In this document: positions 23,569-39,037 of the stretch, piece after piece
Layout: every line of letters begins with the position of its first letter
Numbering within the stretch: position 1 is the stretch's first letter
Origin: Caulobacter sp.
GTDB lineage: Bacteria; Pseudomonadota; Alphaproteobacteria; Caulobacterales; Caulobacteraceae
DNA length: 64,000 nucleotides
Assembly: GCA_021741355.1 (NCBI GenBank)
Contig: JAIOXZ010000012.1
Span: 18,409 to 82,408 of the forward strand
Reading direction: 5' to 3'
Notes under the pieces: generated by a model
Database searches by the model: none
Told to the model about the DNA's origin: nothing
The model's input: only the letters and a program-made list of their open reading frames with translations
Position numbers and translations under genes: made by a program

Positions 23569-23708
23569 TGGAGTCCCCCCCTAATGGGTGAGAGCGTTAC
23601 GCAACACAGGGGCGAATACAATCTCGCGCAACGCGCACGCGCGCTTTGCGTTAGGATGAACGCGTGGCAGGGTTCTGGCGCGACCCAAAGGACCATTGCG
23701 ATCCCCGC

Positions 23709-24824
23709 ATGAGCAAGCCCGCCGACTTCAAGCTCCAGCAGGGGGACACAGGCGCTACGGTGGTCCTGTCCGGCGACTGGACAGCCGAAGGCATGGGCGA
23801 CGCCGACAACCGCCTGGCCGGTATCCTGGATGGCTCGAAGGCCATCTCCGTCGATTTGATGGCCATGGGACGCTGCGACACCGCCGGCGCCTATGCCATT
23901 CTACGGGCCGTTGAAGGCTGCGCGAGCGGCGGGGCGATCGTCGCCAAGCCCGAGACCCGGCGTCTGCTGGACCTGGTCGCGGCCGCCGTCGAGGCGGAGC
24001 CGACGCCGACCGTGCGCGAGATCGGCATCTACAACCTGCTGGTCCGGGTGGGTCAGGGCGTCTTCAACATCATCAACGAGGTGATCGAGACCTTCGCCTT
24101 CATCGGGCGGCTGACGATGTCCGGCCTGCGGGGGATCGCCCGGCCTGGCAAGGTCCGCTGGGCGCCGATCTTCGCCCAGTGCGAGCGCGCGGGCCTGGAC
24201 GCCCTGCCGATCGTGGCGACCGGCACCGCCTTCATCGGCGCGGTCGTGGCGCTGATCGGGATCAATACGTTGAGCGACTTCGGCGCGACGGTGTTCGTGG
24301 TCGAGACGATCGGCATCGCCGTGCTGCGCGAGTTCGGCATCGTCATCACCGCCGTCCTGATCGCCGGCCGTTCGGCCTCGGCCTTCGCCGCCGAGATCGG
24401 GGCGATGAAGATGCGCCAGGAGATCGACGCCATGCAGGTCATGGGCGTGGACCCGTTCGACGCCCTGGTCCTGCCCCGCTTCATCGCGCTGTTGATGATG
24501 ATGCCGCTGCTGACGTTCGTGGCGGACCTTTCGGGGATGGTCGGCGGGATGCTGGTCACCTGGAGCATGCTCGACCTGTCGCCGACCTTCTTCATGCAGC
24601 GGATCGTCGACAACGTCGGGGCGACCCACTTCTGGGTCGGGATCTCCAAGGCGCCGATCATGGCCGCCGTCATTGCCGGCATCGGCTCGCGTCAGGGCAT
24701 GGAGGTCGGCGGCGACGTCATCTCGCTCGGCCAGCGGGTCACCTCCGCCGTGGTCCAGGCGATTTTCACCATCATCGTCATCGATGCGATTTTCGCCGTT
24801 CTCTACATGAAGCTGGACGTATGA
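23709..24824 (+). CDS. mlaE: MlaE-type ABC permease with N-terminal STAS-like domain
   Basis: LREFG...GRSASAFAAEIGAMKMRQEIDA; TSAVVQAIF. Confidence 0.92.
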   Translation: MSKPADFKLQQGDTGATVVLSGDWTAEGMGDADNRLAGILDGSKAISVDLMAMGRCDTAGAYAILRAVEGCASGGAIVAKPETRRLLDLVAAAVEAEPTPTVREIGIYNLLVRVGQGVFNIINEVIETFAFIGRLTMSGLRGIARPGKVRWAPIFAQCERAGLDALPIVATGTAFIGAVVALIGINTLSDFGATVFVVETIGIAVLREFGIVITAVLIAGRSASAFAAEIGAMKMRQEIDAMQVMGVDPFDALVLPRFIALLMMMPLLTFVADLSGMVGGMLVTWSMLDLSPTFFMQRIVDNVGATHFWVGISKAPIMAAVIAGIGSRQGMEVGGDVISLGQRVTSAVVQAIFTIIVIDAIFAVLYMKLDV

Positions 24825-25633
24825 ACGGCCTGGTCGACGAGCATGACACCGACGTCGCGCCGATCGAGATCATCGGTCTGCGCTCGCAGTTCGGCGACCA
24901 CGTGATCCATGAGGATCTCGATCTGACGGTCAATCGCGGCGAAATCCTCGGCGTCGTCGGCGGGTCCGGCTCAGGCAAGTCGGTGCTGATGAACTCCATC
25001 ATCGGCCTCAAGACGCCCGACGGCGGCACCATCAAACTGTTCGGCCAGGATATCGACACCGCCACCCGCCAGAACTGGACGTCGATCGAGCGCCGCTGGG
25101 GCGTGTTGTTCCAGCAGGGCGCGCTGTTCTCGTCCCTGACTGTGCGCGAGAACGTCGCCGCGCCGCTGTTCGAGCACACGCGCCTGTCGCGCGCCGAGAT
25201 CTACGAACTGGCGGACCTGAAGATCGCCCTGTCAGGCCTGCCGTCCCGCGCGGGAGCCCTGCGGCCGGCGGAGCTGTCCGGCGGGATGATCAAGCGGGCG
25301 GCGCTCGCCCGTGCGCTGGCGCTGGACCCGCAACTGCTGTTTCTCGACGAGCCGACCGCCGGACTGGATCCGATCGGCGCGGCGGCCTTCGACGATCTCA
25401 TCGCCGACCTGTCGTCGAGCCTCAACCTCACGGTTTTCATGATCACCCACGACCTCGATACGCTTTACGCCATCACCACCCGTGTGGCGGTGCTGGCCGA
25501 CCGGAAGGTCGTCGCCGCCGCGCCGGTGCGTGAACTGGAGCATTCCAGCCACCCGTGGATTCAGGAATACTTCCTGGGACCGCGAGGTCGTGCCGCAGCA
25601 GGGTCACGGGCAATGACGGGACACAGCGTCTGA
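24821..25633 (+). CDS. mlaF: MlaF-type ABC ATP-binding protein
   Basis: GGSGSGKS, LFQQGALFSSL, LSGGMIKR, FLDEPTAGLDP. Confidence 0.92.
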   Translation: MNGLVDEHDTDVAPIEIIGLRSQFGDHVIHEDLDLTVNRGEILGVVGGSGSGKSVLMNSIIGLKTPDGGTIKLFGQDIDTATRQNWTSIERRWGVLFQQGALFSSLTVRENVAAPLFEHTRLSRAEIYELADLKIALSGLPSRAGALRPAELSGGMIKRAALARALALDPQLLFLDEPTAGLDPIGAAAFDDLIADLSSSLNLTVFMITHDLDTLYAITTRVAVLADRKVVAAAPVRELEHSSHPWIQEYFLGPRGRAAAGSRAMTGHSV

Positions 25634-26571
25634 TGGAACGAAACGCCAATTACGCCCTGGTGGGCGTCGCCTCCCTGGCCCTCGTCATCGGGCTCGTGGT
25701 GTTCATCGTCTGGCTGGCGCGCCTCCAGGTGAACCGTGACTTCGACGAGTACGACATCCTGTTCATCGGCCCGGTCCGCGGCCTGTCCGAAGGCGGTGAG
25801 GTGCACTTCAACGGCATCAAGGTCGGGGAGGTCACCAAGATCGCGCTTGATAGCCGCGACCCCAACCGGGTGATGGCGCGGGCGCGGATCACGTCCGACG
25901 TCCCGATCCGAGAGGACTCCTTCGCAACCCTCGAGCCGCAGGGGATCACGGGCGTCAACTATGTGCAGATCACCGCGGGAACGCCGTCCAAGCGGTTGCT
26001 GAAGACAACCGTGGAAAGCGGCGAAATACCTATCATCCGGAGCCAGAACAGCGCGCTGTCGGACCTGCTCCAGGGCGGCGGCACGGTGCTGTCGCGAACC
26101 ATCGAGGCGCTGGATCGGGTCAACCGGGTGCTGTCGGACGAGAACGTCAAGGTCTTCGGCGCCGCGCTCAACGACGTCCAGGCGATCACCGCCGAGGCCC
26201 GCGAGCGCAAGGCGATCATCGCCGACGCCCAGAAGGCCCTGCAGAGCATCGATGCGGCGGCGACCGAAATCACCGAGCTGAGCCGATCGACCAAGGGCCT
26301 GGTGGACGGAGACGGCCGGCGCACCCTGGCCGAACTCAGCGAAGCCGCGGCTGAACTGAAGGCCGCGACGCGCGACGCCCGCGCCATGATCGGCAAGCTC
26401 GACGGCCCGACCACCGAGTTCGCCGACACCGGCCTGCCGCAACTGACCCGGGCGATCACCTCGCTCCAGGCCACCGCAGAGTCCCTCGACCGGCTGGTCG
26501 GTGAGGTTGAACAGAATCCGCAGGGCGTCGTCTCCAAGGCGCCTGCCAGAGAAGTGGAGGTTCAGCCGTGA
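25633..26571 (+). CDS. mlaD: MlaD/MCE-domain protein
   Basis: N-terminal TM, GLSEGGEVHFNGIKVGEV, QGITGVNY; helical C-terminus. Confidence 0.9.
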   Translation: MERNANYALVGVASLALVIGLVVFIVWLARLQVNRDFDEYDILFIGPVRGLSEGGEVHFNGIKVGEVTKIALDSRDPNRVMARARITSDVPIREDSFATLEPQGITGVNYVQITAGTPSKRLLKTTVESGEIPIIRSQNSALSDLLQGGGTVLSRTIEALDRVNRVLSDENVKVFGAALNDVQAITAEARERKAIIADAQKALQSIDAAATEITELSRSTKGLVDGDGRRTLAELSEAAAELKAATRDARAMIGKLDGPTTEFADTGLPQLTRAITSLQATAESLDRLVGEVEQNPQGVVSKAPAREVEVQP

Positions 26572-27194
26572 ACCGTCGCCTGACCGCCGCCGCGCTCGCG
26601 CTGGCCGCCATCGCCCTGTCGGGCTGTATCTCGCTGTTTCCCAAGGCCGAGCCGGCGCAACTGTATCGCTTCGAGGCCCGGCCGCAGCCCCAGTCGGCGC
26701 CGGCGCCGGCGGGGCCGCTGTTCGGGGTGCTGCGGCTGGGCACAAGCTTTCCACGCGCCTCCGGGGGCGACCGCATCCTGACCATCAACGACCGGGGCGA
26801 GGCCGCCTATATCGCGGGCGCCCGCTGGGTCTCGCCGGCGTCAGTGCTGTTCGACGAGCAGGTGTCCACGGCCTTCCAGGGCGCCGGACGGGCGCGGCTG
26901 ATCAGCCGCGGCGAGGTGATCAAGGCCGACTTCTCGCTCAAGCTCGATGTCCAGGTCTTCGAGACCCTCTACGATCGGGGGCCCAAGGCCGCCCCGGAAA
27001 TCGTCGTGTCGGTCCGGGGCGTGGTCACCCGCAATCGCGACCGCGCGCTGATCGGCGACCGGGTCTTCGCCGCCCGCATCCGGGCCGGCGAGAACCGCGT
27101 CAGCGCGATCGTGCCGGCCTACAACGCCGCCCTCACCCAGGTGCTCGGCGAGCTCGTCGGCTGGGTCAATTCGGTGGATACGTCGGACGGCTAG
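26568..27194 (+). CDS. PqiC-like ABC auxiliary lipoprotein
   Basis: LSGC lipobox; ARWVSPA motif; fourth gene of the MCE operon. Confidence 0.85.
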   Translation: MNRRLTAAALALAAIALSGCISLFPKAEPAQLYRFEARPQPQSAPAPAGPLFGVLRLGTSFPRASGGDRILTINDRGEAAYIAGARWVSPASVLFDEQVSTAFQGAGRARLISRGEVIKADFSLKLDVQVFETLYDRGPKAAPEIVVSVRGVVTRNRDRALIGDRVFAARIRAGENRVSAIVPAYNAALTQVLGELVGWVNSVDTSDG

Positions 27195-30182: not shown

Positions 30183-30677
30183 ATGGACATCAACCGCCTC
30201 TTCACCCGCTTTGCAAACCAGGTCTCGAAATGGGCGGGGCGGCCCTTCTCGTTCGCCCTCTGTGTCGCCGGCGTGGTGGCCTGGGCATTGACCGGGCCGG
30301 CCTTCAACTATTCCTCGAACTGGCAGCTGGTGATCAACACCTCGACGACCATCATCACCTTCCTGATGGTGTTCCTGATCCAGAACACCCAGAACCGCGA
30401 CAACGCCGCCCTGCACGCCAAGCTGGACGAGCTGATCCGGGTCGGCGATTCCGACAACAGGTTCATCGGCATCGAGCATCTGACCGATCAGGAGCTGGAG
30501 GTGATCCTGGCGGAGTGCGAGCGCGCCGCGAAGGACCTGCACCAGGAACTGCACAACGAGCGGCGCAAAGCCGCCGCGGCCGGGACGGCCAAGGACGATG
30601 ACGCGCCCGGCCATCCCATGCCTGCCAGCGGAAAGCCTCCGGCGCGCAAGCGCGCGACGAAGCGCAAGCCCGCCTAG
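30183..30677 (+). CDS. low-affinity iron permease family (Fet4-like) protein
   Basis: WQLVINTSTTIITFLMVFLIQNTQNRD...KLDELI. Confidence 0.88.
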   Translation: MDINRLFTRFANQVSKWAGRPFSFALCVAGVVAWALTGPAFNYSSNWQLVINTSTTIITFLMVFLIQNTQNRDNAALHAKLDELIRVGDSDNRFIGIEHLTDQELEVILAECERAAKDLHQELHNERRKAAAAGTAKDDDAPGHPMPASGKPPARKRATKRKPA

Positions 30678-30708
30678 CCTTCGGGCGGGGGCGTGCTATC
30701 TGCGGGGG

Positions 30709-31890
30709 ATGGCCTCGACCTCCGCAACCTGTGCCGACGTCGTCCTGGTGGGCGGCGGGCTGGCCAACGGACTGATCGCCCTGCGCCTCAAGGCGCTGCG
30801 GCCGGCGCTCAAGGTCATCATCGTCGAGCATGGCGAAACCCTGGGCGGGCGGCACACCTGGAGCCATTTCGCGACGGACGTCAGTGCAGCGATCAGCACC
30901 TGGCTCGACCCGCTGATCGTGCACCGCTGGGAGGGCTATGACGTCCGCTTTCCGGCCCACCGCCGGACGCTGACGACGCCCTATCGCTCGGTGACCTCCG
31001 ACCGCTTCCACGAGGTCGTTCATGCGGCGCTCGGCGACGACGCCTGGACCGGTGTCGCCGTGACGGACGTGCGGCCCGATCGCGTGGTGCTGGAAGACCA
31101 GCGGGTGATTGAGGCCCGCTGCGTGATCGACGGCCGCGGGCCGCGCCCCAACTGGGACCTCGTGCTGGGATGGCAGAAGTTCGTCGGGCTGGAGGTGGAG
31201 CTCGCGGCGCCACACGGCCTGTCCCGCCCGATCATCATGGACGCCACGGTCGACCAGCTCGACGGCTACCGGTTCCTCTACGCCCTGCCCTTTTCACCGA
31301 CCCGGCTGCTGATCGAAGACACCCGCTACGCCGACGGCCACGATCTCGACCGCGAGACGCTGCGGCGGGACATAGAGGCCTACGCCGCCGCCCAGGGCTG
31401 GACCATCAAGTCCGTCGTGCGCGAGGAGATCGGGGTGCTGCCCATCGCCCTGGCCGGCGACATCGACGCCTACTGGCGGGCCTCCGATCTGCCAGAAGTC
31501 GGGCTGCGCGCCGCCCTGTTCCAGCCGATCACCGGCTATTCGCTGCCGGACGCCGCGCGACTGGCGGACGAGATCGCAGACTTGCCGGACCTGACCACGG
31601 CGACAGCGCGGGCCTGCGTCGAGGCGCGCTCGAAGCAGCGCTGGGCGGAGCGCGCCTACTACCGGCTGCTCAACCGAATGCTGTTCAAGGCCGCGCAGCC
31701 TGGTCGCCGCTATGTCGTGCTGGAGCGGTTCTACCGCCTGTCGCAGGGGCTGGTGGAGCGGTTCTACGCCGGGCGGATCACGCTGGCCGACAAGGCCCGC
31801 ATCCTGATAGGCAAGCCACCGGTGCCCGTCGCGGCTGCCCTGGCGGTGCTGTCCGAACGATCGGTAATTCCTGGGGACGCAGACACATGA
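30709..31890 (+). CDS. crtY: lycopene beta-cyclase
   Basis: VGGGLANGL, HTWS, QKFVG, MDATV.Q.DGYRF.Y, EDTRY, GYSLP. Confidence 0.95.
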   Translation: MASTSATCADVVLVGGGLANGLIALRLKALRPALKVIIVEHGETLGGRHTWSHFATDVSAAISTWLDPLIVHRWEGYDVRFPAHRRTLTTPYRSVTSDRFHEVVHAALGDDAWTGVAVTDVRPDRVVLEDQRVIEARCVIDGRGPRPNWDLVLGWQKFVGLEVELAAPHGLSRPIIMDATVDQLDGYRFLYALPFSPTRLLIEDTRYADGHDLDRETLRRDIEAYAAAQGWTIKSVVREEIGVLPIALAGDIDAYWRASDLPEVGLRAALFQPITGYSLPDAARLADEIADLPDLTTATARACVEARSKQRWAERAYYRLLNRMLFKAAQPGRRYVVLERFYRLSQGLVERFYAGRITLADKARILIGKPPVPVAAALAVLSERSVIPGDADT

Positions 31891-33374
31891 GCAAGCCGCG
31901 CGCGGCTGTTATCGGTTCCGGCTTCGGCGGCCTGGCCCTGGCCATCCGTCTGCAATCGGCCGGGATCGACGTCACGGTGTTCGAACGCCGCGACAAGCCG
32001 GGCGGCCGCGCCTACGTCTGGGAGGACGAGGGCTTCATCTTCGACGCGGGTCCCACGGTCATCACCGACCCGGACTGCCTGAAGGAGCTGTTCACGCTCA
32101 GCGGTCGCAAGATCGAGGACTATGTCGAGCTGCTGCCGGTCGACCCGTTCTATCGCCTCGTCTGGGAGGACGGCGACGTCTTCGACTACGTCAACGACCA
32201 GGACGAACTGGACCGTCAGATCGCCGCCCGCAACCCCGCCGATGTCGAGGGCTATCGCCGCTTCCACGCCTATTCCGAAGAGCTCTACCAGAAGGGCTAT
32301 GTCGAGCTCGGCGCCGTGCCGTTCCTCGACTTCGGCCGCATGATCGCCGCCGCGCCCGCGCTGATGAAGCTGCAGGCCTGGCGCAGCGTCTATGACAAGG
32401 TGGCGAGCTTCGTGAAGGACGAGCACGTTCGCCAGGCGCTGTCGTTCCACAGCCTGCTGGTGGGCGGCAGCCCGTTCGCCACCTCCTCCATCTATGCCCT
32501 GATCCATGCCCTGGAGCGGCGCGGCGGCGTGTGGTTCCCGCGCGGCGGAACCGGAGCGCTCATCCGGGCTCTGGTGAAGCTGTTCGAGGACCTCGGCGGC
32601 AGGATCGAGCTCGATGCGCCGATCTCGAAGATCACCACCGCCGGCGGCCGGGTGACCGGCGTCATTCGCCATGACGGCGAATTCGAAGCGTTCGACACCG
32701 TCGCCTCCAACGCCGACATCATGCACACCTACCGCGAGCTGCTGGTCGACGATCCGCGCGGCAAGGCGGCCAGCAAGGCGCTGGAGAAGAAGCGCTGGAG
32801 CCCCTCGCTGTTCGTCATCTACTTCGGGCTCAAGGCGGAACACCCGCAGATCCGGCACCACACCATCTGCTTCGGACCGCGCTATCGCGAGCTGATCGGG
32901 GACATCTACAACAAGGACACGCTGTCGGAGGACTTCTCCCTCTACCTGCACAATCCCTGCGCCACCGACCCCGGCATGGCGCCGCCCGGGGGCAGCGCCT
33001 TCTACGTGCTGTCAGTCGTGCCCAACCTGGAAACCGCCGACATCGACTGGGCGACGGAGGGTGAAGCCTATCGCGACAAGATCCTGAAATACCTCGAGGA
33101 TCGCTACATCCCCAACCTGGCGCGCGACCTCGTCACCTGCCGCATCTTCACGCCGGACGACTTCACAACAGAGCTGAACGCCTGGAACGGCGCGGCCTTC
33201 TCGCTGGAACCGATCCTCACCCAGAGCGCCTGGTTCCGCACCCACAATCGCGACGACAAGATCCCCAACCTCTACTTCGTCGGGGCCGGCACCCATCCGG
33301 GCGCGGGCATCCCGGGGGTCGTCGGGTCGGCCAAGGCGACCGCGGCGCTGATGATCCCGGACCTCACGCCGTGA
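31887..33374 (+). CDS. crtI: phytoene desaturase
   Basis: IGSGFGGLA, FDAGPTVIT, YFVGAGTHPGAGIPGVVGSAKATA. Confidence 0.96.
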   Translation: MSKPRAAVIGSGFGGLALAIRLQSAGIDVTVFERRDKPGGRAYVWEDEGFIFDAGPTVITDPDCLKELFTLSGRKIEDYVELLPVDPFYRLVWEDGDVFDYVNDQDELDRQIAARNPADVEGYRRFHAYSEELYQKGYVELGAVPFLDFGRMIAAAPALMKLQAWRSVYDKVASFVKDEHVRQALSFHSLLVGGSPFATSSIYALIHALERRGGVWFPRGGTGALIRALVKLFEDLGGRIELDAPISKITTAGGRVTGVIRHDGEFEAFDTVASNADIMHTYRELLVDDPRGKAASKALEKKRWSPSLFVIYFGLKAEHPQIRHHTICFGPRYRELIGDIYNKDTLSEDFSLYLHNPCATDPGMAPPGGSAFYVLSVVPNLETADIDWATEGEAYRDKILKYLEDRYIPNLARDLVTCRIFTPDDFTTELNAWNGAAFSLEPILTQSAWFRTHNRDDKIPNLYFVGAGTHPGAGIPGVVGSAKATAALMIPDLTP

Positions 33375-34324
33375 GCGAGGCGCTTCCCGGACCGGACCTG
33401 GTTCAGGCCAGCCGCGAGACCATCCAGAAGGGCTCGCAGAGCTTCGCCGCGGCCGCCGCGCTTTTCGATCCGCAGACCCGCGCCGACGCGGAGATGCTCT
33501 ACGCCTGGTGCCGGCATTGCGATGACGTCATCGACGGACAGACGCTCGGCCATGACCGCGAGGCGCTCGACCCGGCCGAGGTCGAGGAGCGGCTCGTCGG
33601 CCTCTACGCCCAGACCCGCGCGGCGCTGGCGGGCCATCCGACCGACGATCCCGCCTTCGCCGCCTTCCGCGAGGTGGCGGCCCGGCGCGACCTGCCCGAG
33701 CGCTATCCGATCGAGCTGATCGACGGCTTCGCCATGGACGTCGCGGGGCGTCGCTACGAGACGATCGAGGACACGCTCGACTACTGCTGGCACGTTGCCG
33801 GCGTCGTCGGGGTGATGATGGCCATCGTCATGGGCGTGCGGCCCGACGACCTGCAGACCCTGCGCCGGGCGCAGGATCTGGGCCTGGCCTTCCAGCTGAC
33901 CAATATCGCCCGCGACATCGTCGAGGACGCGCAGAACGACCGCATCTACCTGCCCGCCGACTGGCTGGCGGCGGCGAGCGTGCCGGAGGACGCGGTGGCC
34001 GCGCCGGAGCACCGCGCGGCCGTCGCCGGCCTCGCCAGGCGTCTGGTCGAGGCGGCCGAGCCCTACTACGCCTCCGCCCGCTGGGGCCTGCGCGGCTTGC
34101 CCTTCCGCTCGGCCTGGGCCGTGGCGGCGGCGCGGGGCGTCTATCGCGAGATCGGGGTCAAGGTGGTGGCGCGCGGCGCGAAGGCCTGGGACGAGCGGGT
34201 GTCGACCTCGACCGCGGAGAAGCTCGGCCTGGCCCTCGGCGGCGGCCTGATGGCCCTGCGCGGCGCGACGCTGGATCGCTGGCGCGCGCCGCCGGCGCGG
34301 CCGGCGCTGTGGAGCAAGATCTAG
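33371..34324 (+). CDS. crtB: phytoene synthase
   Basis: KGSQSF, YAWCRHCDDVID, YCWHVAGVVG, AFQLTNIARDIVED. Confidence 0.96.
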   Translation: MSEALPGPDLVQASRETIQKGSQSFAAAAALFDPQTRADAEMLYAWCRHCDDVIDGQTLGHDREALDPAEVEERLVGLYAQTRAALAGHPTDDPAFAAFREVAARRDLPERYPIELIDGFAMDVAGRRYETIEDTLDYCWHVAGVVGVMMAIVMGVRPDDLQTLRRAQDLGLAFQLTNIARDIVEDAQNDRIYLPADWLAAASVPEDAVAAPEHRAAVAGLARRLVEAAEPYYASARWGLRGLPFRSAWAVAAARGVYREIGVKVVARGAKAWDERVSTSTAEKLGLALGGGLMALRGATLDRWRAPPARPALWSKI

Positions 34325-34836
34325 AGCGGCGCTTCTGTGCCGTCGGGCGCGACGGTGCGGAGGTCGACATTGCGCGCCTCCAGCTGGGCTTTCAGCTGGC
34401 GCACCGGCGGCGCCATCAGGAAGCCGAAGGAGACGCACCCATCCTTCGTGTGAACCGCATGGTGGAAGCGGTGGGCCTGGATCAGGCGCTTCCAGAACGC
34501 CGACTTGCCGCTCAGCGGCACAGGGTAGCGGCGATGCACCAGCCCGTCGTGGAACATGAAGTAGATCGCGCCATAGGCGGTGATCCCGAGCCCGACCGGC
34601 AGCATCCAGTCCAGCGTGGTGTTCACGCCCAGCCAGATCGCCACGATCGCCGGCGCGGCGAACACCACGGCGAACAGGTCATTGAGCTCGAACAGGCCCT
34701 CGCGCGGCTCGTGATGCGACTTGTGCCAGACCCACATGAAGCCATGCATGACGTACTTGTGCATGACGAAGGCGAAGCCTTCCATGAAGGCCAGCGCGCC
34801 CAGGAACAGGGCCAGGCTGATCGCAAACTGCAGCAT
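34321..34836 (-). CDS. crtZ: beta-carotene 3-hydroxylase
   Basis: His boxes HKYVMHG, HKSHH, HDGLVH, HRFHH; ELNDLF. Confidence 0.95.
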   Translation of the reverse strand: MLQFAISLALFLGALAFMEGFAFVMHKYVMHGFMWVWHKSHHEPREGLFELNDLFAVVFAAPAIVAIWLGVNTTLDWMLPVGLGITAYGAIYFMFHDGLVHRRYPVPLSGKSAFWKRLIQAHRFHHAVHTKDGCVSFGFLMAPPVRQLKAQLEARNVDLRTVAPDGTEAPL

Positions 34837-34844
34837 CGTAATCC

Positions 34845-36035
34845 TCAGCGGACGAGGCGCGTCGCCGCCTGGGCCAGCATGAGACCGAGCAGGCCGGTGA
34901 CCGTCAGCACCGCCCAGGCAGGATACACCGCCGAGAGGCCCGCGTCCCGCCAGAGGATCGACTGATAGGCCTCAATCGTCCAGGCGTGGGGCGTCGCCCA
35001 GCCGGCCATCTGCAGCCACGGCGGCATCAGGAAGCGGGGCACCATGCTGCCGCCGATCGCCGCCAGGATCAGGATGATGAAGGTCGACAGCATCTGGCCC
35101 TGGTCGCGCGTCTTGCAGAACGACACGATCGCCAGCGCCAGACCCGCCGCGCAGATCGACGCGGCCACGACCGTGACCAGCCACGGCCCCACATGTTGCA
35201 GGACCGGAACGCCGTAGATCAGCTGCGCCGTGGCGAAGATGGCGAGGGCCTGGACCATGCCCTGGGCGACCAGGAACAGGAACTTTCCGGTCACCACCGG
35301 GCCCATGCCGCGCGTGCCGGCGAGGATGCGGTCGGCCACGCCGCTGCGGCGTTCGTCGATCAGCGACAGGGCGCCGGTCATGGCCGAGAACAGCGCGAAC
35401 AGGATGCTGACCGCGCCAGCGTAGTAGGCGATCGTGCCGCCGCCCTTCTTGGCGCCGGCGATGTCTTCGCGGGCGAACAGGGTCGGGCCGGCCGGCTTTG
35501 TCTCGCCCTTGGCCAGAACGGCCCCGGCGGCGGTCGACACGGCGATCTGCCGCTGGCTGTAGCCGCCGACGGCCGGGGCGGTCTCCACCAGCGTTCGGGC
35601 CAGCAGGACGTCCGGCATCGCACGGGCCATCGTCTGCTGCACGCGCGCCATGGTCAGGGGCGCGGCGACCGCGCGGCTGGGGTCGGAGACGACGAGGATC
35701 GGGGCGCCGGGCGCGCCGGGGTCGCCGGCGATGATCACCCCGGCGTCGGCCTTGCCGGCCTTCACCAGGCGCCGGACCTCCGCGCCGGTGTCCGGGGTCG
35801 TGCGCTCGGCGCGGACATCGGGATCGCTGAGCAGGGCGGTGGCGAGGCGCTGCGAGGCGGGCGTGCGGGCATCGTCGGCGATGGCGAGCTTGAGCCTCAC
35901 GTCCTCGCCGGTGGCGCCGGCGAACACCGCCGAGAAGATCAGGAACACCAGCGGCGGCAACAGGAAGGTCATCACCAGCGCGCCGCGGTCCCGCCACAGC
36001 CCGAGCGCCATGACGCGGAACATGGCCAGGATCAT
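34845..36035 (-). CDS. ABC-2 type exporter permease
   Basis: One N-terminal TM, large extracytoplasmic loop, five C-terminal TMs; GGSMVPRFLMP, TPHAW. Confidence 0.9.
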   Translation of the reverse strand: MILAMFRVMALGLWRDRGALVMTFLLPPLVFLIFSAVFAGATGEDVRLKLAIADDARTPASQRLATALLSDPDVRAERTTPDTGAEVRRLVKAGKADAGVIIAGDPGAPGAPILVVSDPSRAVAAPLTMARVQQTMARAMPDVLLARTLVETAPAVGGYSQRQIAVSTAAGAVLAKGETKPAGPTLFAREDIAGAKKGGGTIAYYAGAVSILFALFSAMTGALSLIDERRSGVADRILAGTRGMGPVVTGKFLFLVAQGMVQALAIFATAQLIYGVPVLQHVGPWLVTVVAASICAAGLALAIVSFCKTRDQGQMLSTFIILILAAIGGSMVPRFLMPPWLQMAGWATPHAWTIEAYQSILWRDAGLSAVYPAWAVLTVTGLLGLMLAQAATRLVR

Positions 36036-36970
36036 GCGGCGCGCCTCCAGTCGGCGACGAGGCTGAACAGGTTCTGCAATGACGGCGGCCGCACGCGGAT
36101 CTCCCGCGGGATCATCCCCAGACTCCGCAGGCGCCGATCGAGCTGCGCCGCGGCGCTGTAGCCGCCTTCGTCGAGGCGGGCCCAGAGATTGCCCTTGCGC
36201 CGCTCCAGCCCTTCGGAGGCGAGGATGCTCTCGCCGTCCATGTCGGGTTCGACGTCCATCTGGACGAGGATTTCCATCTCCTGACCGAAGGCCTGCTCGA
36301 TCAGGGCGCGGGGCGAGCCCTCGAGGACTTTGCGGCCCTCCTTGAGGAATCCGACGCGGTCGGCCAGGGCGCCCGCCTGCTCCAGGTCGTGGGTGACGAT
36401 CAGCACGGACACGCCGGTGTCGCGCAGACCGCGGATCACTGTGTCGAGCGCCTCGCGCGCATCGACGTCCACGCCAACGGTCGGCTCGTCGAGGATCAGC
36501 AGTTGCGGCTGATGCAGGATCGCGGCGGCGATGTTGACCCGCCGGCGATAGCCGCCGGACAAGTGCTTCACCGGCACGTGCTCGCGGTCGGCGGTTCTGG
36601 TGAGTCGCAGCGCGCGGACTACCGCGTCTCCCAGCGCGCGCCGTGGAACGCCGGACAGCCGCCCGAAGACCTGCAGGTTTTCGCGCACGGTCATATGGTC
36701 ATAGAGCGCGATCTCCTGGGGCACGAGGCCGAGGCGCGCGCGCGCGAGCGGCGAGGTGAAGGGATCGTGGCCATCCAGCGCCACCTCGCCGGAGGTCAGC
36801 TTCAACCGGCCACAGATGGCGCCGACGAGGGTCGACTTGCCTGCGCCGTTTGGGCCCAGCAGGGCGTAGATCTCGCCGGGCCGCACGGCGAGGTCCACGC
36901 CGCGAAGCACCTTGCGGCTGCCGTACTGGTGCTCGGCGCCCCAGACGTTGAGGATCGGGCGGTCGGTCAA
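36032..36970 (-). CDS. ABC-2 type exporter ATP-binding protein
   Basis: GPNGAGKS, LSGGYRRR, ILDEPTVGVD; TTG start overlapping the crtE stop. Confidence 0.9.
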   Translation of the reverse strand: MTDRPILNVWGAEHQYGSRKVLRGVDLAVRPGEIYALLGPNGAGKSTLVGAICGRLKLTSGEVALDGHDPFTSPLARARLGLVPQEIALYDHMTVRENLQVFGRLSGVPRRALGDAVVRALRLTRTADREHVPVKHLSGGYRRRVNIAAAILHQPQLLILDEPTVGVDVDAREALDTVIRGLRDTGVSVLIVTHDLEQAGALADRVGFLKEGRKVLEGSPRALIEQAFGQEMEILVQMDVEPDMDGESILASEGLERRKGNLWARLDEGGYSAAAQLDRRLRSLGMIPREIRVRPPSLQNLFSLVADWRRAA

Positions 36971-37851
36971 GCCGCCGCCCTTCTCGCTTCGAAGAGATCG
37001 TGAACGTAGCGCGCGAGGAGCCCCTGCCCCACGCCGGCTCTCGCCAGGCCGGCCCAAGAGGCCTGAAGGTGGGCGTCGCGGGCGGCCCGGGCGCCCTCCA
37101 GCCCGATCGCTGACACCAGCGTGGTCATGCCGGCGTCCTTGCCGACGTCCTTGCCGAGGTCGGCGCCGCCCTCGACGTCGAGGATGTCATCGTGGATCTG
37201 GAACGCCAGGCCGAGATGGGTGGCGAACTCGCCGACGCCCAGCACCGCCAGCGACGAGGCGCCGGCGATCAGGGCCCCGGCCTCGGCGGCGGCGACCATC
37301 AGGACGCCGGTCTTGCGATGATTGAGCATCTCCAGCTCATCTGCCGCGCGCTGGCGATCCCTGTCCTGCAGGTCCATCGCCTGACCGGCGACGAGGCCCG
37401 AGAAGCCGATGGCCCGGGACAGCCGCGCGGCCAGATCGGCCTTCAGCGGTCCCGCCAGTCCCGCCGCAGACGCGACAACGCCATAGGCGAGATTGAGCAG
37501 CCCCACCGAGGCGAGGATCGCCGTCGCCTCGTCGAAGGCCTTGTGCGTCGTGACCCGTCCGCGACGCAGGTCCGCATCGTCCATGCAGGGCAGGTCGTCG
37601 AGGATCAGGGACGCCGCGTGAACCATCTCACAGGCGCAGGCGACGTCCAGCGCGGCGGCCGGATCGCCGCCGAATTCACGGGCGGTCAGCAGGGTCAACA
37701 TCGGCCGGAACCGCTTGCCCGGCGACAGCAGGGCATAGCGCGCGGCCTCGGCCAGCCGCGCCGGTCGCGCGTCACGGTCCGGAGTCAGCTCCGCCAGGCG
37801 ACGCTCCACGGCGGCCTGGCATTGCTCGATAAAGGCGGCGTCGTCGTCCAT
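36967..37851 (-). CDS. crtE: geranylgeranyl diphosphate synthase
   Basis: GKRFRP, HAASLILDDLPCMDD..LRRG, KTG, FQIHDD; located in the crt cluster (alternative start 37881). Confidence 0.92.
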   Translation of the reverse strand: MDDDAAFIEQCQAAVERRLAELTPDRDARPARLAEAARYALLSPGKRFRPMLTLLTAREFGGDPAAALDVACACEMVHAASLILDDLPCMDDADLRRGRVTTHKAFDEATAILASVGLLNLAYGVVASAAGLAGPLKADLAARLSRAIGFSGLVAGQAMDLQDRDRQRAADELEMLNHRKTGVLMVAAAEAGALIAGASSLAVLGVGEFATHLGLAFQIHDDILDVEGGADLGKDVGKDAGMTTLVSAIGLEGARAARDAHLQASWAGLARAGVGQGLLARYVHDLFEARRAAA

Positions 37852-37965
37852 GCCCTGCAGCGCCGTCCGGCTGTCCCCCAAGCGGACGGCCCATTTGAGG
37901 GAGGCCGCACGGGAGCGTCAACCGGCGATGCAGTTCCTGTGCAGATGATCCACCGGCGGACCCGG

Positions 37966-38589
37966 TCAGGCCGCGACGGCCTCGCCCCACTCGCTCCAGC
38001 CGAGCACGCGGGGCGTGCCGGGCAGGTACATGCGTTCACTGCTGGTCACGGTGAAGCCGGCCCCCAACACCGAGGCGGTGATCGGTCGTGTCAGGTGACA
38101 ACCGCCGGCGATGGCCTTCCACATCGGCTCCAGCCGGCCCTGCCATTTCGCCACGCCGGCGTCGGGCGCCAGGCCGTGCTCGCAGAACAGGAACCGGCCG
38201 CCCGGCTTCAGCACCCGCTGCGCTTCCGCCAGCGCCGCGGTCGGCGACTGGACCGAGCAGAGGGTGAAGGTGCAGACCACGCAGTCGAAGCTGTCGTTCT
38301 CGAACGGCAGGGATTCGGCCGTGCCGGCCTGGATATCGACCTTGAGCCCCTCCGGCCGTTCCGCCGCCAGGGCGAAGGCGCGCAGTTCGTCCGAAGGGTC
38401 GACCCCGGACACGCTCGAGACCTTCGAGGGGTCGTAGTACTGCAGGTTCAGCCCGCCGCCGATGCCCAGCTCCAGCACCTTGCCGGCGGCCTTCGGCACG
38501 ACCTTCACGCGCTGCTTCATGATCGGCTTGCTTGCGCAGGCGCAGCCGATCAGCTTCGGCATGATGTGCCGGTCATAGAAAGACGTCAT
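37966..38589 (-). CDS. class I SAM-dependent methyltransferase
   Basis: VLELGIGGG, FDCVV, VLKPGG. Confidence 0.9.
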   Translation of the reverse strand: MTSFYDRHIMPKLIGCACASKPIMKQRVKVVPKAAGKVLELGIGGGLNLQYYDPSKVSSVSGVDPSDELRAFALAAERPEGLKVDIQAGTAESLPFENDSFDCVVCTFTLCSVQSPTAALAEAQRVLKPGGRFLFCEHGLAPDAGVAKWQGRLEPMWKAIAGGCHLTRPITASVLGAGFTVTSSERMYLPGTPRVLGWSEWGEAVAA

Positions 38590-38590
38590 C

Positions 38591-39037
38591 TCAGTCCTGC
38601 CCCCGCATCCATTTCGCCACCGCCCAGGCGTGGCCGTCGTGCCGCAGCCGACGGATCGCCTCGGTCGGATCGATCCACACCAGCGTGTGGTCGTCCTCGA
38701 TCTTGAGCCCCTCGTCCTCGCCTGTCACCTCGACCGCGTAGACGCCGGCGACGTTGTTGACCGGCTCGTCGTCGGACAGGACGAAATACTGGCGGATGCC
38801 GGTGATCCTGGGGCCGGCGGTCACGACCAGCCCGGTCTCCTCGCCGAACTCGCGGATCAGGGCCTGGACCTCGTCCTCGCCCGGATCGATCGCGCCGCCG
38901 GGCAGGTCGAAATAGTCGCTGCCTTCAGCCGTTCGGACGCGTACCAGGGCGATCGTCTGCCCGCGCCGCGCGATGCCGAAGGCCGCCGGACGCTCGCGAT
39001 GAATCGCGCCGTCGACCGGCCGGCCGAACTGCGGCAT
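38591..39037 (-). CDS. NUDIX hydrolase
   Basis: PGGAIDPGEDEVQALIREFGEETG Nudix box. Confidence 0.92.
   Translation of the reverse strand: MPQFGRPVDGAIHRERPAAFGIARRGQTIALVRVRTAEGSDYFDLPGGAIDPGEDEVQALIREFGEETGLVVTAGPRITGIRQYFVLSDDEPVNNVAGVYAVEVTGEDEGLKIEDDHTLVWIDPTEAIRRLRHDGHAWAVAKWMRGQD

Follow-up and report, generated by a model that had tools for sequence, protein, structure and literature searches.

The window analysed here is a 64,000-nt stretch of a Caulobacter sp. contig (JAIOXZ010000012.1, positions 18,409 to 82,408) originating from a lake-water metagenome; the closest genome is that of a Caulobacteraceae isolate, whose permease is 95% identical to the one described below. It encodes a carotenoid gene cluster in which an ATP-binding cassette (ABC) transporter, consisting of a separate ATPase and permease (hereafter, the pair), is located between the biosynthetic genes crtE and crtZ on the minus strand. 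The operon begins with crtE (36967..37851), which encodes a geranylgeranyl diphosphate synthase-type polyprenyl synthase (PF00348, 156 bits) and has an ATG start at 37851, an alternative in-frame TTG upstream at 37881, and a TGA stop at 36969-36967. The second gene (36032..36970) encodes the 312-residue ATPase, or nucleotide-binding domain (NBD; PF00005, 115.8 bits), and its TTG start (36970-36968) overlaps the crtE stop by 4 nt in the sequence TTGA. The ATG (36035-36033) of the following gene, which encodes a 396-residue ABC-2 (type V) permease (34845..36035), overlaps the ATPase TGA (36034-36032), also by 4 nt (ATGA). Between the permease stop (34847-34845) and the ATG of crtZ (34836), a gap of 8 nt (ggattacg) was observed. 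The crtZ gene (34321..34836) encodes a 171-residue beta-carotene 3,3'-hydroxylase, assigned by its identity to Pantoea CrtZ and its His motifs. Both overlaps and the short gap had been reported in the initial annotation and were confirmed by direct reading of the minus strand.

The minus-strand frames can be regarded as real genes because their GC content at third codon positions is 0.87-0.95, compared with 0.68-0.75 in the overlapping plus-strand open reading frames. As translated from the TTG start, the N-terminus of the ATPase aligns with homologues in nine other loci, including that of Bradyrhizobium ORS278; since no crtE lies upstream of the ORS278 homologue, this start is supported independently of the crtE overlap. 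Shine-Dalgarno-like motifs (AAGGG, TGGAGG and GAGGA) precede the three internal starts, those of the ATPase, the permease and crtZ, and together with the two 4-nt overlaps and the 8-nt gap they argue for co-expression of all four genes. Equally tight junctions were observed in Caulobacter, Devosia, Arsenicitalea and Aureimonas, and the 4-nt ATPase/permease overlap recurs in 70 of the 93 loci that contain both genes. On the minus strand of the operon, no internal promoter- or terminator-like site was found in the scan; three terminator-like matches were obtained, each of them on the plus strand and no better than expected by chance. The promoter scan returned no sigma-70-like site, a consensus that is uninformative for Caulobacterales promoters. 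A search of the whole window for Rfam families and tRNAs identified two tRNAs only; neither a riboswitch nor any known regulatory RNA was located close to the operon. The sole RNA-type run (X9) consists of contigs of 230-750 nt, many of them less than 90% identical, and none extends across a gene junction.

The association between the pair and carotenoid genes was examined in 112 related loci (cited below by L numbers), which were collected from species-representative genomes, profile-searched metagenomes, exact-protein look-ups and annotated plasmids, and onto which carotenoid genes were mapped with tblastn and Pfam. Among the 55 loci with at least 2.5 kb of sequence on both sides, 52 contained a crt gene no more than 3.5 kb away. 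When redundancy was removed, the linkage was present in 27 of 32 permease clusters at 70% identity and in 9 of 10 at 55%. It spans at least 14 gene orders and at least seven alphaproteobacterial families. Co-occurrence of this permease clade with crt genes across Alphaproteobacteria, which the initial annotation had proposed to look for, is thus the rule, and its orthologues are not mostly unlinked from them. In 99 loci the contig extends beyond the pair on the downstream side, and in 92 of them the gene that follows directly is a carotenoid gene, namely crtZ (62), crtW (20), a crtP-like gene (7), crtY (2) or hpnE (1), while crtE is kept upstream of the ATPase in 62 loci. Because the 4-nt overlap recurs so frequently and a carotenoid gene follows directly in nearly all of these loci, the arrangement is not attributable to chance. 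The crtZ, crtW and crtP-like genes encode enzymes that install polar end groups, and the most constant neighbour of the pair is a polar end-group enzyme of this kind.

The composition of the clusters varies considerably among lineages (E, B, I, Y, Z and W, crt genes; a, ATPase; P, permease; slashes separate the units). The Caulobacterales display E-a-P-Z convergent with B-I-Y, followed by folD. Devosia soli, D. lucknowensis and Arsenicitalea aurantiaca share the order idi2 / E-a-P-W-Z / B-I-Y with different outer flanks, and Aureimonas fodinaquatilis exhibits idi2 / E-a-P-Z / B-I-Y with a UDP-glycosyltransferase gene upstream. The order a-P-W-Z / B-I-Y-idi-E was observed in Rhizobium sp. Leaf321 and R. 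soli, a-P-W-Z alone on a Neorhizobium plasmid, and BIY / E-a-P-Z, Y-a-P-Z and a-P-Y / W in metagenome loci. In Bradyrhizobium sp. ORS278 (L106, CU234118.1 6742103-6763326), a-P is convergent with crtW-B-I-Y and overlaps the end of crtW by 4 nt, and crtE is divergent. This locus is the experimentally studied, classic canthaxanthin cluster, and we found no discussion in the literature of the transporter pair adjoining it. The permease tree comprises at least seven deep clades among which gene order differs, so the linkage does not represent mere inherited synteny. The family is small, with 203 clusters (50% identity) at E <1e-30 in a set of 1.84 billion representatives. The order crtE-a-P-crtW-like is retained around a homologue at 36% identity, whereas one at 31% lies among glycosyltransferase and GDP-mannose genes, and the linkage therefore seems to end near 31-36% identity. 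The glycosyltransferase gene of A. fodinaquatilis mentioned above is a UDPGT-family, crtX-like gene (L108, 5133-6419) located two genes upstream of crtE; its presence in an exporter cluster suggests that zeaxanthin glycosides may be among the cargoes.

Clusters for C30 carotenoids are also included in this distribution. A Methylobacterium sp. locus displays the order crtN-like, DUF2141, ATPase, permease, crtP-like, acyltransferase and GT2, which matches that of M. extorquens AM1 from META1p3670 (crtN) to META1p3663. By extension from this locus, M. extorquens AM1/PA1 would carry the pair, in AM1 between crtN and crtP. The crtP, acyltransferase and glycosyltransferase genes of AM1 have been shown genetically to lead to an acyl-glucosyl C30 carotenoic acid (PMC10448405); this paper on the AM1 cluster mentions neither the intervening genes nor an ABC protein or transporter, and the words ABC or transporter are likewise absent from the paper on the squalene route. 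A Microvirga ossetica plasmid carries DUF2141-ATPase-permease facing a convergent gene set that comprises ispH, hpnE, a fused hpnC/D, GT2, an acyltransferase and two members of the crtI family. Because the Methylobacterium and Microvirga loci hold C30 genes, one transporter clade occurs alongside the phytoene (C40) route as well as the squalene (C30) route, and the trait shared by the C40 and C30 products is their polar end groups. "CrtI-like" neighbours at 33% identity were considered as counter-evidence to the linkage and rejected as such, being C30 crtN/crtP-type genes accompanied by the acyltransferase and GT2 genes whose function was established in M. extorquens AM1.

In the Methylobacterium/Microvirga clade, a DUF2141 gene of about 140 codons is located just upstream of the ATPase, at a distance of 2 nt in Microvirga (L085, 8668-9015; L104, 7599-8012; also L088, L084, L091 and L077). 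In L091 and L077, which lack a crt gene in the vicinity, it still accompanies the pair. The encoded proteins possess two conserved cysteines and a signal peptide with an Ala-X-Ala cleavage site, the latter indicating that they are secreted. DUF2141 genes have also been observed next to crtG in Sphingomonadales and Qipengyuania, where they were left unexplained (PMC5989583, PMC9241875). Since these proteins are secreted, are coupled to the pair and have been reported independently beside crtG, DUF2141 may be a plausible periplasmic acceptor for the pair in Methylobacteriaceae.

Other small proteins are encoded beside the pair in other lineages. In K31-type Caulobacter loci, a 170-residue lipoprotein with the lipobox LGAC precedes crtE (L016, 7560-8072) and a 146-residue four-helix membrane protein follows crtZ (L016, 11756-12196). 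Neither belongs to a Pfam family, and both are also present in L017-L020 and L029-L033; they may be lineage-specific partners of the exporter. In L107 (13530-15439), two YceI-like genes and a cytochrome b561 gene adjoin crtW, beside an ATPase-permease-crtY unit. YceI-like proteins are a family of periplasmic polyisoprenoid-binding proteins, and those of L107 could represent another type of periplasmic carrier. Neither DUF2141 nor counterparts of the K31-type lipoprotein and the 146-residue membrane protein were found in the window.

The ATPase contains an intact set of motifs, including Walker A (GPNGAGKST), a Q-loop, the signature LSGGYRRR, Walker B with the catalytic Glu (LLILDEPT) and the H-loop THD; the four quoted sequences are conserved in 10 lineages. 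It also carries a conserved C-terminal extension of about 75 residues. The permease exceeds the Pfam cut-offs of PF12698 (ABC2_membrane_3; 107.5 bits, cut-off 31.6), PF01061 (ABC2_membrane; 75.4, cut-off 26.9) and PF12679 (32.9, cut-off 27.2), and a nearly invariant motif, GGSMVPRFLMPPWLQ..GW.TP.AW.IEAY, was observed between transmembrane helices (TM) 5 and 6. The ratio of nonsynonymous to synonymous substitution rates (dN/dS), calculated against homologues that are 70-83% identical, lies at 0.15-0.24 in the ATPase and at 0.23-0.38 in the permease, values comparable to those of crtE and crtZ. The pair thus retains intact catalytic motifs and is under purifying selection.

The layout of the permease consists of TM1 (approximately residues 2-38), an alpha/beta domain of about 155 residues (approximately 43-198), and TM2-TM6 (approximately 199-395). 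An AlphaFold2 model, obtained with 64 homologues, reached a mean predicted local distance difference test (pLDDT) score of 80.8. In this model, helices and strands at residues 49-191, between the helices 26-38 and 199-222, form a folded domain between TM1 and TM2, which confirms the large extracytoplasmic loop described in the initial annotation. The Arg-rich N-terminus and analogy with related transporters suggest that this domain is periplasmic. The top 50 Foldseek matches in the PDB were all ABCH, ABCG, ABCA or NosY proteins, in agreement with a six-helix type V fold. The ceramide-bound Tribolium ABCH-9C was the best PDB match by sequence (phmmer E 0.002), and ABCH-9C also ranked first in the fold comparison, with a Foldseek E value of 9e-9 and a TM-score of 0.54 normalised to the query, ahead of ABCG sterol and hormone exporters, ABCA7/ABCA3 and NosY. 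The modelled fold is that of lipid exporters. In NCBIfam, the pair scored under the cut-off of every named family. Identity with DrrAB was ruled out (TIGR01188/TIGR01247; drrA 192.8 against 312.45, drrB 40.6 against 223.05), as was identity with NodIJ (TIGR01288; nodI 170.9 against 424) and SagH (41 against 450).

The remaining carotenoid genes of the window are located on the plus strand and comprise crtY (30598..31890), encoding a lycopene beta-cyclase (PF05834, 330 bits), crtI (31890..33374), encoding a phytoene desaturase (PF01593, 182 bits), and crtB (33371..34324), encoding a phytoene synthase (PF00494, 231.7 bits). The PF05834 domain begins at residue 47, and the true start of crtY may lie somewhat downstream of 30598. 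These three genes are mutually coupled, the crtI ATG sharing one base with the crtY stop and the crtB GTG start overlapping the crtI stop, and they converge on the crtE-ATPase-permease-crtZ operon. The stops of crtB and crtZ overlap tail to tail by 4 nt (34321-34324), leaving no room for a terminator between the two convergent operons; Pantoea exhibits the same convergent crtB/crtZ layout.

With regard to the product, CrtE matches the NCBIfam models FPPsyn (248 bits) and CrtE (198 bits), in both cases under the cut-offs. Its motif HAASLILDDLPCMDD places Ala, a non-aromatic residue, five positions ahead of the first DDxxD, a chain-length determinant that fits a C20 product. CrtZ of the window has no Pfam match; it is 49-54% identical to the product of the Pantoea ananatis/stewartii gene that lies tail to tail with crtB, contains the His motifs HKSHHE, HDGLVH and HRFHH, and has homologues at 73% identity that carry PF04116. 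The gene set E, B, I, Y and Z predicts zeaxanthin as the product. A homologue search of the window identified no crtW, idi2 or second polyprenyl synthase.

Based on gene context and the modelled fold, the pair is at present the best candidate for the machinery by which polar carotenoids leave the inner membrane. A functional tie of some kind to carotenoids is very probable, and we lean, with modest confidence, towards ATP-driven export that takes polar xanthophylls out of the inner membrane in the direction of the outer membrane; substrate class, transport direction and destination are what we infer here. The complex would be a homodimeric type V (ABC-2) exporter assembled from two NBDs and two permeases of six helices, the latter each bearing a periplasmic domain, and would be made from one mRNA with CrtE and CrtZ through translational coupling. 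Driven by ATP, it would withdraw completed carotenoids with polar ends from the inner membrane and expose them at the periplasmic face, en route to the outer membrane. The cargo in this strain would be zeaxanthin from CrtE-B-I-Y-Z, and in relatives canthaxanthin, astaxanthin-type xanthophylls or C30 acyl-glucosyl carotenoic acids; in Methylobacteriaceae, the secreted DUF2141 protein coupled to the pair may serve as the periplasmic acceptor. The dedicated carotenoid exporter or flippase proposed in the initial annotation is thus supported as a candidate by the linkage and by the lipid-exporter fold. Its more specific assignment to zeaxanthin or a precursor is unlikely, as the same transporter clade is found in clusters for canthaxanthin, astaxanthin-type and C30 acyl-glycosyl carotenoids. 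Because these clusters share one transporter clade and the constant partner is a polar-end enzyme, the substrate is better described as polar carotenoids in general.

Carotenoids of M. extorquens have been reported in the outer membrane, with no transporter named (bioRxiv 10.1101/2020.12.21.423902). A passage of the same preprint cites HpnN as a cluster-encoded transporter that is needed to place hopanoids in the outer membrane of an alphaproteobacterium. Export to the outer membrane would fit the former observation and parallel the latter. More tentatively, the pair might be the inner-membrane engine of a dedicated carotenoid trafficking pathway with a wide distribution in Alphaproteobacteria, a counterpart of Lpt for lipopolysaccharide, Lol for lipoproteins and HpnN for hopanoids, with small secreted carriers and recognition of the polar end group; we consider this possible, at somewhat less than even chances. 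The carriers would be DUF2141 in Methylobacteriaceae and possibly YceI-like proteins or a lipoprotein elsewhere. By recognising the polar end rather than the carbon skeleton, such a pathway could serve both C40 hydroxy/keto and C30 acyl-glycosyl carotenoids.

Comparison with known systems reveals several partial likenesses. ABCH-9C of Tribolium castaneum (PDB 8yzp, 8z01, 8z0i), an exporter of ceramide and cuticular-barrier lipids, shares the type V fold and an extracellular domain between TM1 and TM2, and the lipid that it extrudes from the membrane is very hydrophobic, as proposed here for the cargo of the pair. However, this eukaryotic protein is a half-transporter in which NBD and transmembrane domain are fused, whereas the ATPase described here is a separate gene; the identity is 17-18%, and substrate and setting differ. 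The type V fold is also shared with ABCG5/G8 (sterols), ABCG25 (abscisic acid, a carotenoid-derived molecule), ABCG2, and ABCA7/ABCA3 (phospholipids), with Foldseek E values of 4e-4 to 5e-3, and ABCA proteins possess a large extracytoplasmic domain after TM1, like the permease. These ABCG and ABCA proteins differ in being eukaryotic, with identities of 10-14%, other domain orders and no common gene context. HpnN is a functional analogue, as a cluster-encoded transporter for an isoprenoid membrane lipid, but it belongs to the unrelated RND family, is proton-driven, consists of a single large polypeptide and handles another lipid. DrrAB (daunorubicin), NodIJ (Nod factor) and SagGHI resemble the pair in having separate NBD and ABC-2 permease genes within the biosynthetic cluster of the product; the scores given above are far under the cut-offs of DrrAB, NodIJ and SagH. 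To our knowledge, DrrB and NodJ are shorter permeases without the 155-residue periplasmic domain. In Corynebacterium glutamicum, the membrane transporter-like gene cg0722 likewise follows crtE directly in a carotenoid operon, crtE-cg0722-crtBIYeYfEb; it is of the MMPL/RND type, a different family from the pair, and is found in a Gram-positive host in connection with C50 carotenoids.

Several observations weigh against export of polar carotenoids. The reading is built on gene association and fold, and the model is weak in parts of the periplasmic domain, with pLDDT below 50 at residues 40-47, 177-184 and 193-197. No periplasmic or outer-membrane partner was found encoded in the window. Among the 32 non-redundant loci, five have no crt gene nearby, namely L012 (Beijerinckiaceae), L014, L077 and L091 (Microvirga), and L098. 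CrtZ is encoded on 109 plasmids (95 from Pantoea and 5 from Paracoccus), the permease on two plasmids of the collection, and both on one. In addition, the ORS278 crt genes yield canthaxanthin in E. coli without the transporter pair. The pair is dispensable for xanthophyll synthesis and not a general requirement.

The missing partner gene is also what would be expected if the pair served biosynthesis within the inner membrane, by flipping or presenting beta-carotene or intermediates to CrtZ, CrtW or CrtP or by setting the leaflet distribution of carotenoids, none of which would then be passed on to the outer membrane. Such a role agrees with an end-group oxygenase as the constant neighbour and with the translational coupling of the pair to enzymes. 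We nevertheless consider it unlikely, given that CrtZ and CrtW are functional in Pantoea and Paracoccus, and also in E. coli, without the pair; moreover, a large periplasmic domain and a fold like that of ABCH/ABCA/ABCG proteins characterise an extruder, and one clade has a secreted DUF2141 protein coupled to the pair. The linkage to crt genes does not in itself identify the transported molecule, and the cargo could also be a non-pigment companion, such as toxic products of carotenoid oxidation or cleavage (apocarotenoids), photo-oxidised lipids or a different isoprenoid lipid, particularly as ABC-2 exporters handle many amphipathic compounds and the best NCBIfam matches (DrrA, NodI and SagH) are all under cut-offs. 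This appears quite improbable: the linkage extends across C40 hydroxy/keto and C30 acyl-glycosyl acid products, whose by-products would differ, and the coupling to crtE and crtZ implies that the pair is produced stoichiometrically along with the pathway and not as part of a stress response. The vertically inherited synteny of Caulobacterales, including folD, represents one event, and a few relatives are unlinked, as would be compatible with a general ABC-2 efflux pump that was trapped in an ancestral crt cluster and inherited or transferred along with it, with no role in carotenoids. Only a slim chance is left for this explanation, however, because the place beside crt genes was kept through at least 14 gene orders while the partner changed (crtZ, crtW, crtY, crtP-like or crtE), and survived both a change of orientation (convergent in ORS278) and the switch between the unrelated C40 phytoene and C30 squalene routes. 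The pair is also under purifying selection of the same strength as the crt genes.

Carotenoid synthesis takes place at the inner membrane, and we know of no bacterial protein that moves the products. In Gram-negative bacteria, Methylobacterium among them, carotenoids have nevertheless been reported in the outer membrane, and there they tune lipid packing (bioRxiv 10.1101/2020.12.21.423902). In a full-text literature search, no description of an ABC transporter in these carotenoid clusters was encountered, and a 2023 review of carotenoid engineering covers secretion through generic pumps and envelope mutants only (PMC10742120). The protein family is already known, and its pathway role and conserved cluster membership appear to be undescribed. 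The pair provides a conserved and concrete candidate for carotenoid transport that is present in Bradyrhizobium ORS278 and predicted in M. extorquens AM1/PA1, genetic models with characterised clusters. Its occurrence in genetic model strains reduces the question to a one-knockout experiment. If export is confirmed, metabolic engineers would gain a native xanthophyll exporter in place of generic pumps and leaky-envelope mutants, and a likely role would be assigned to DUF2141, which had been noticed beside crtG in Sphingomonadales (PMC5989583).

Upstream of crtE, two further minus-strand genes were identified in the window. A UbiE-like methyltransferase (37966-38589; Pfam Methyltransf_11) lies directly upstream of crtE, preceded by a Nudix hydrolase (38591-39037; Pfam NUDIX), which gives a weak match to Idi type 1, itself a Nudix-fold enzyme. 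These two genes are kept with the operon solely in Caulobacterales (synteny in L001-L010, L015, L025 and L035). They are present in the clade of the window and in the Brevundimonas-like loci L009, L010 and L015, but absent from the K31-type Caulobacter loci, and their membership in the transporter/carotenoid system is uncertain. Approximately 7 kb from crtY, an MCE/Mla-type lipid-trafficking ABC system was observed on the plus strand (23664-27194), consisting of a STAS-MlaE fusion, an ATPase (about 24848-25546), an MlaD protein and an ABC_trans_aux lipoprotein. An ATPase match at the same position in L001 and L004-L007 suggests that the synteny of this system is conserved.

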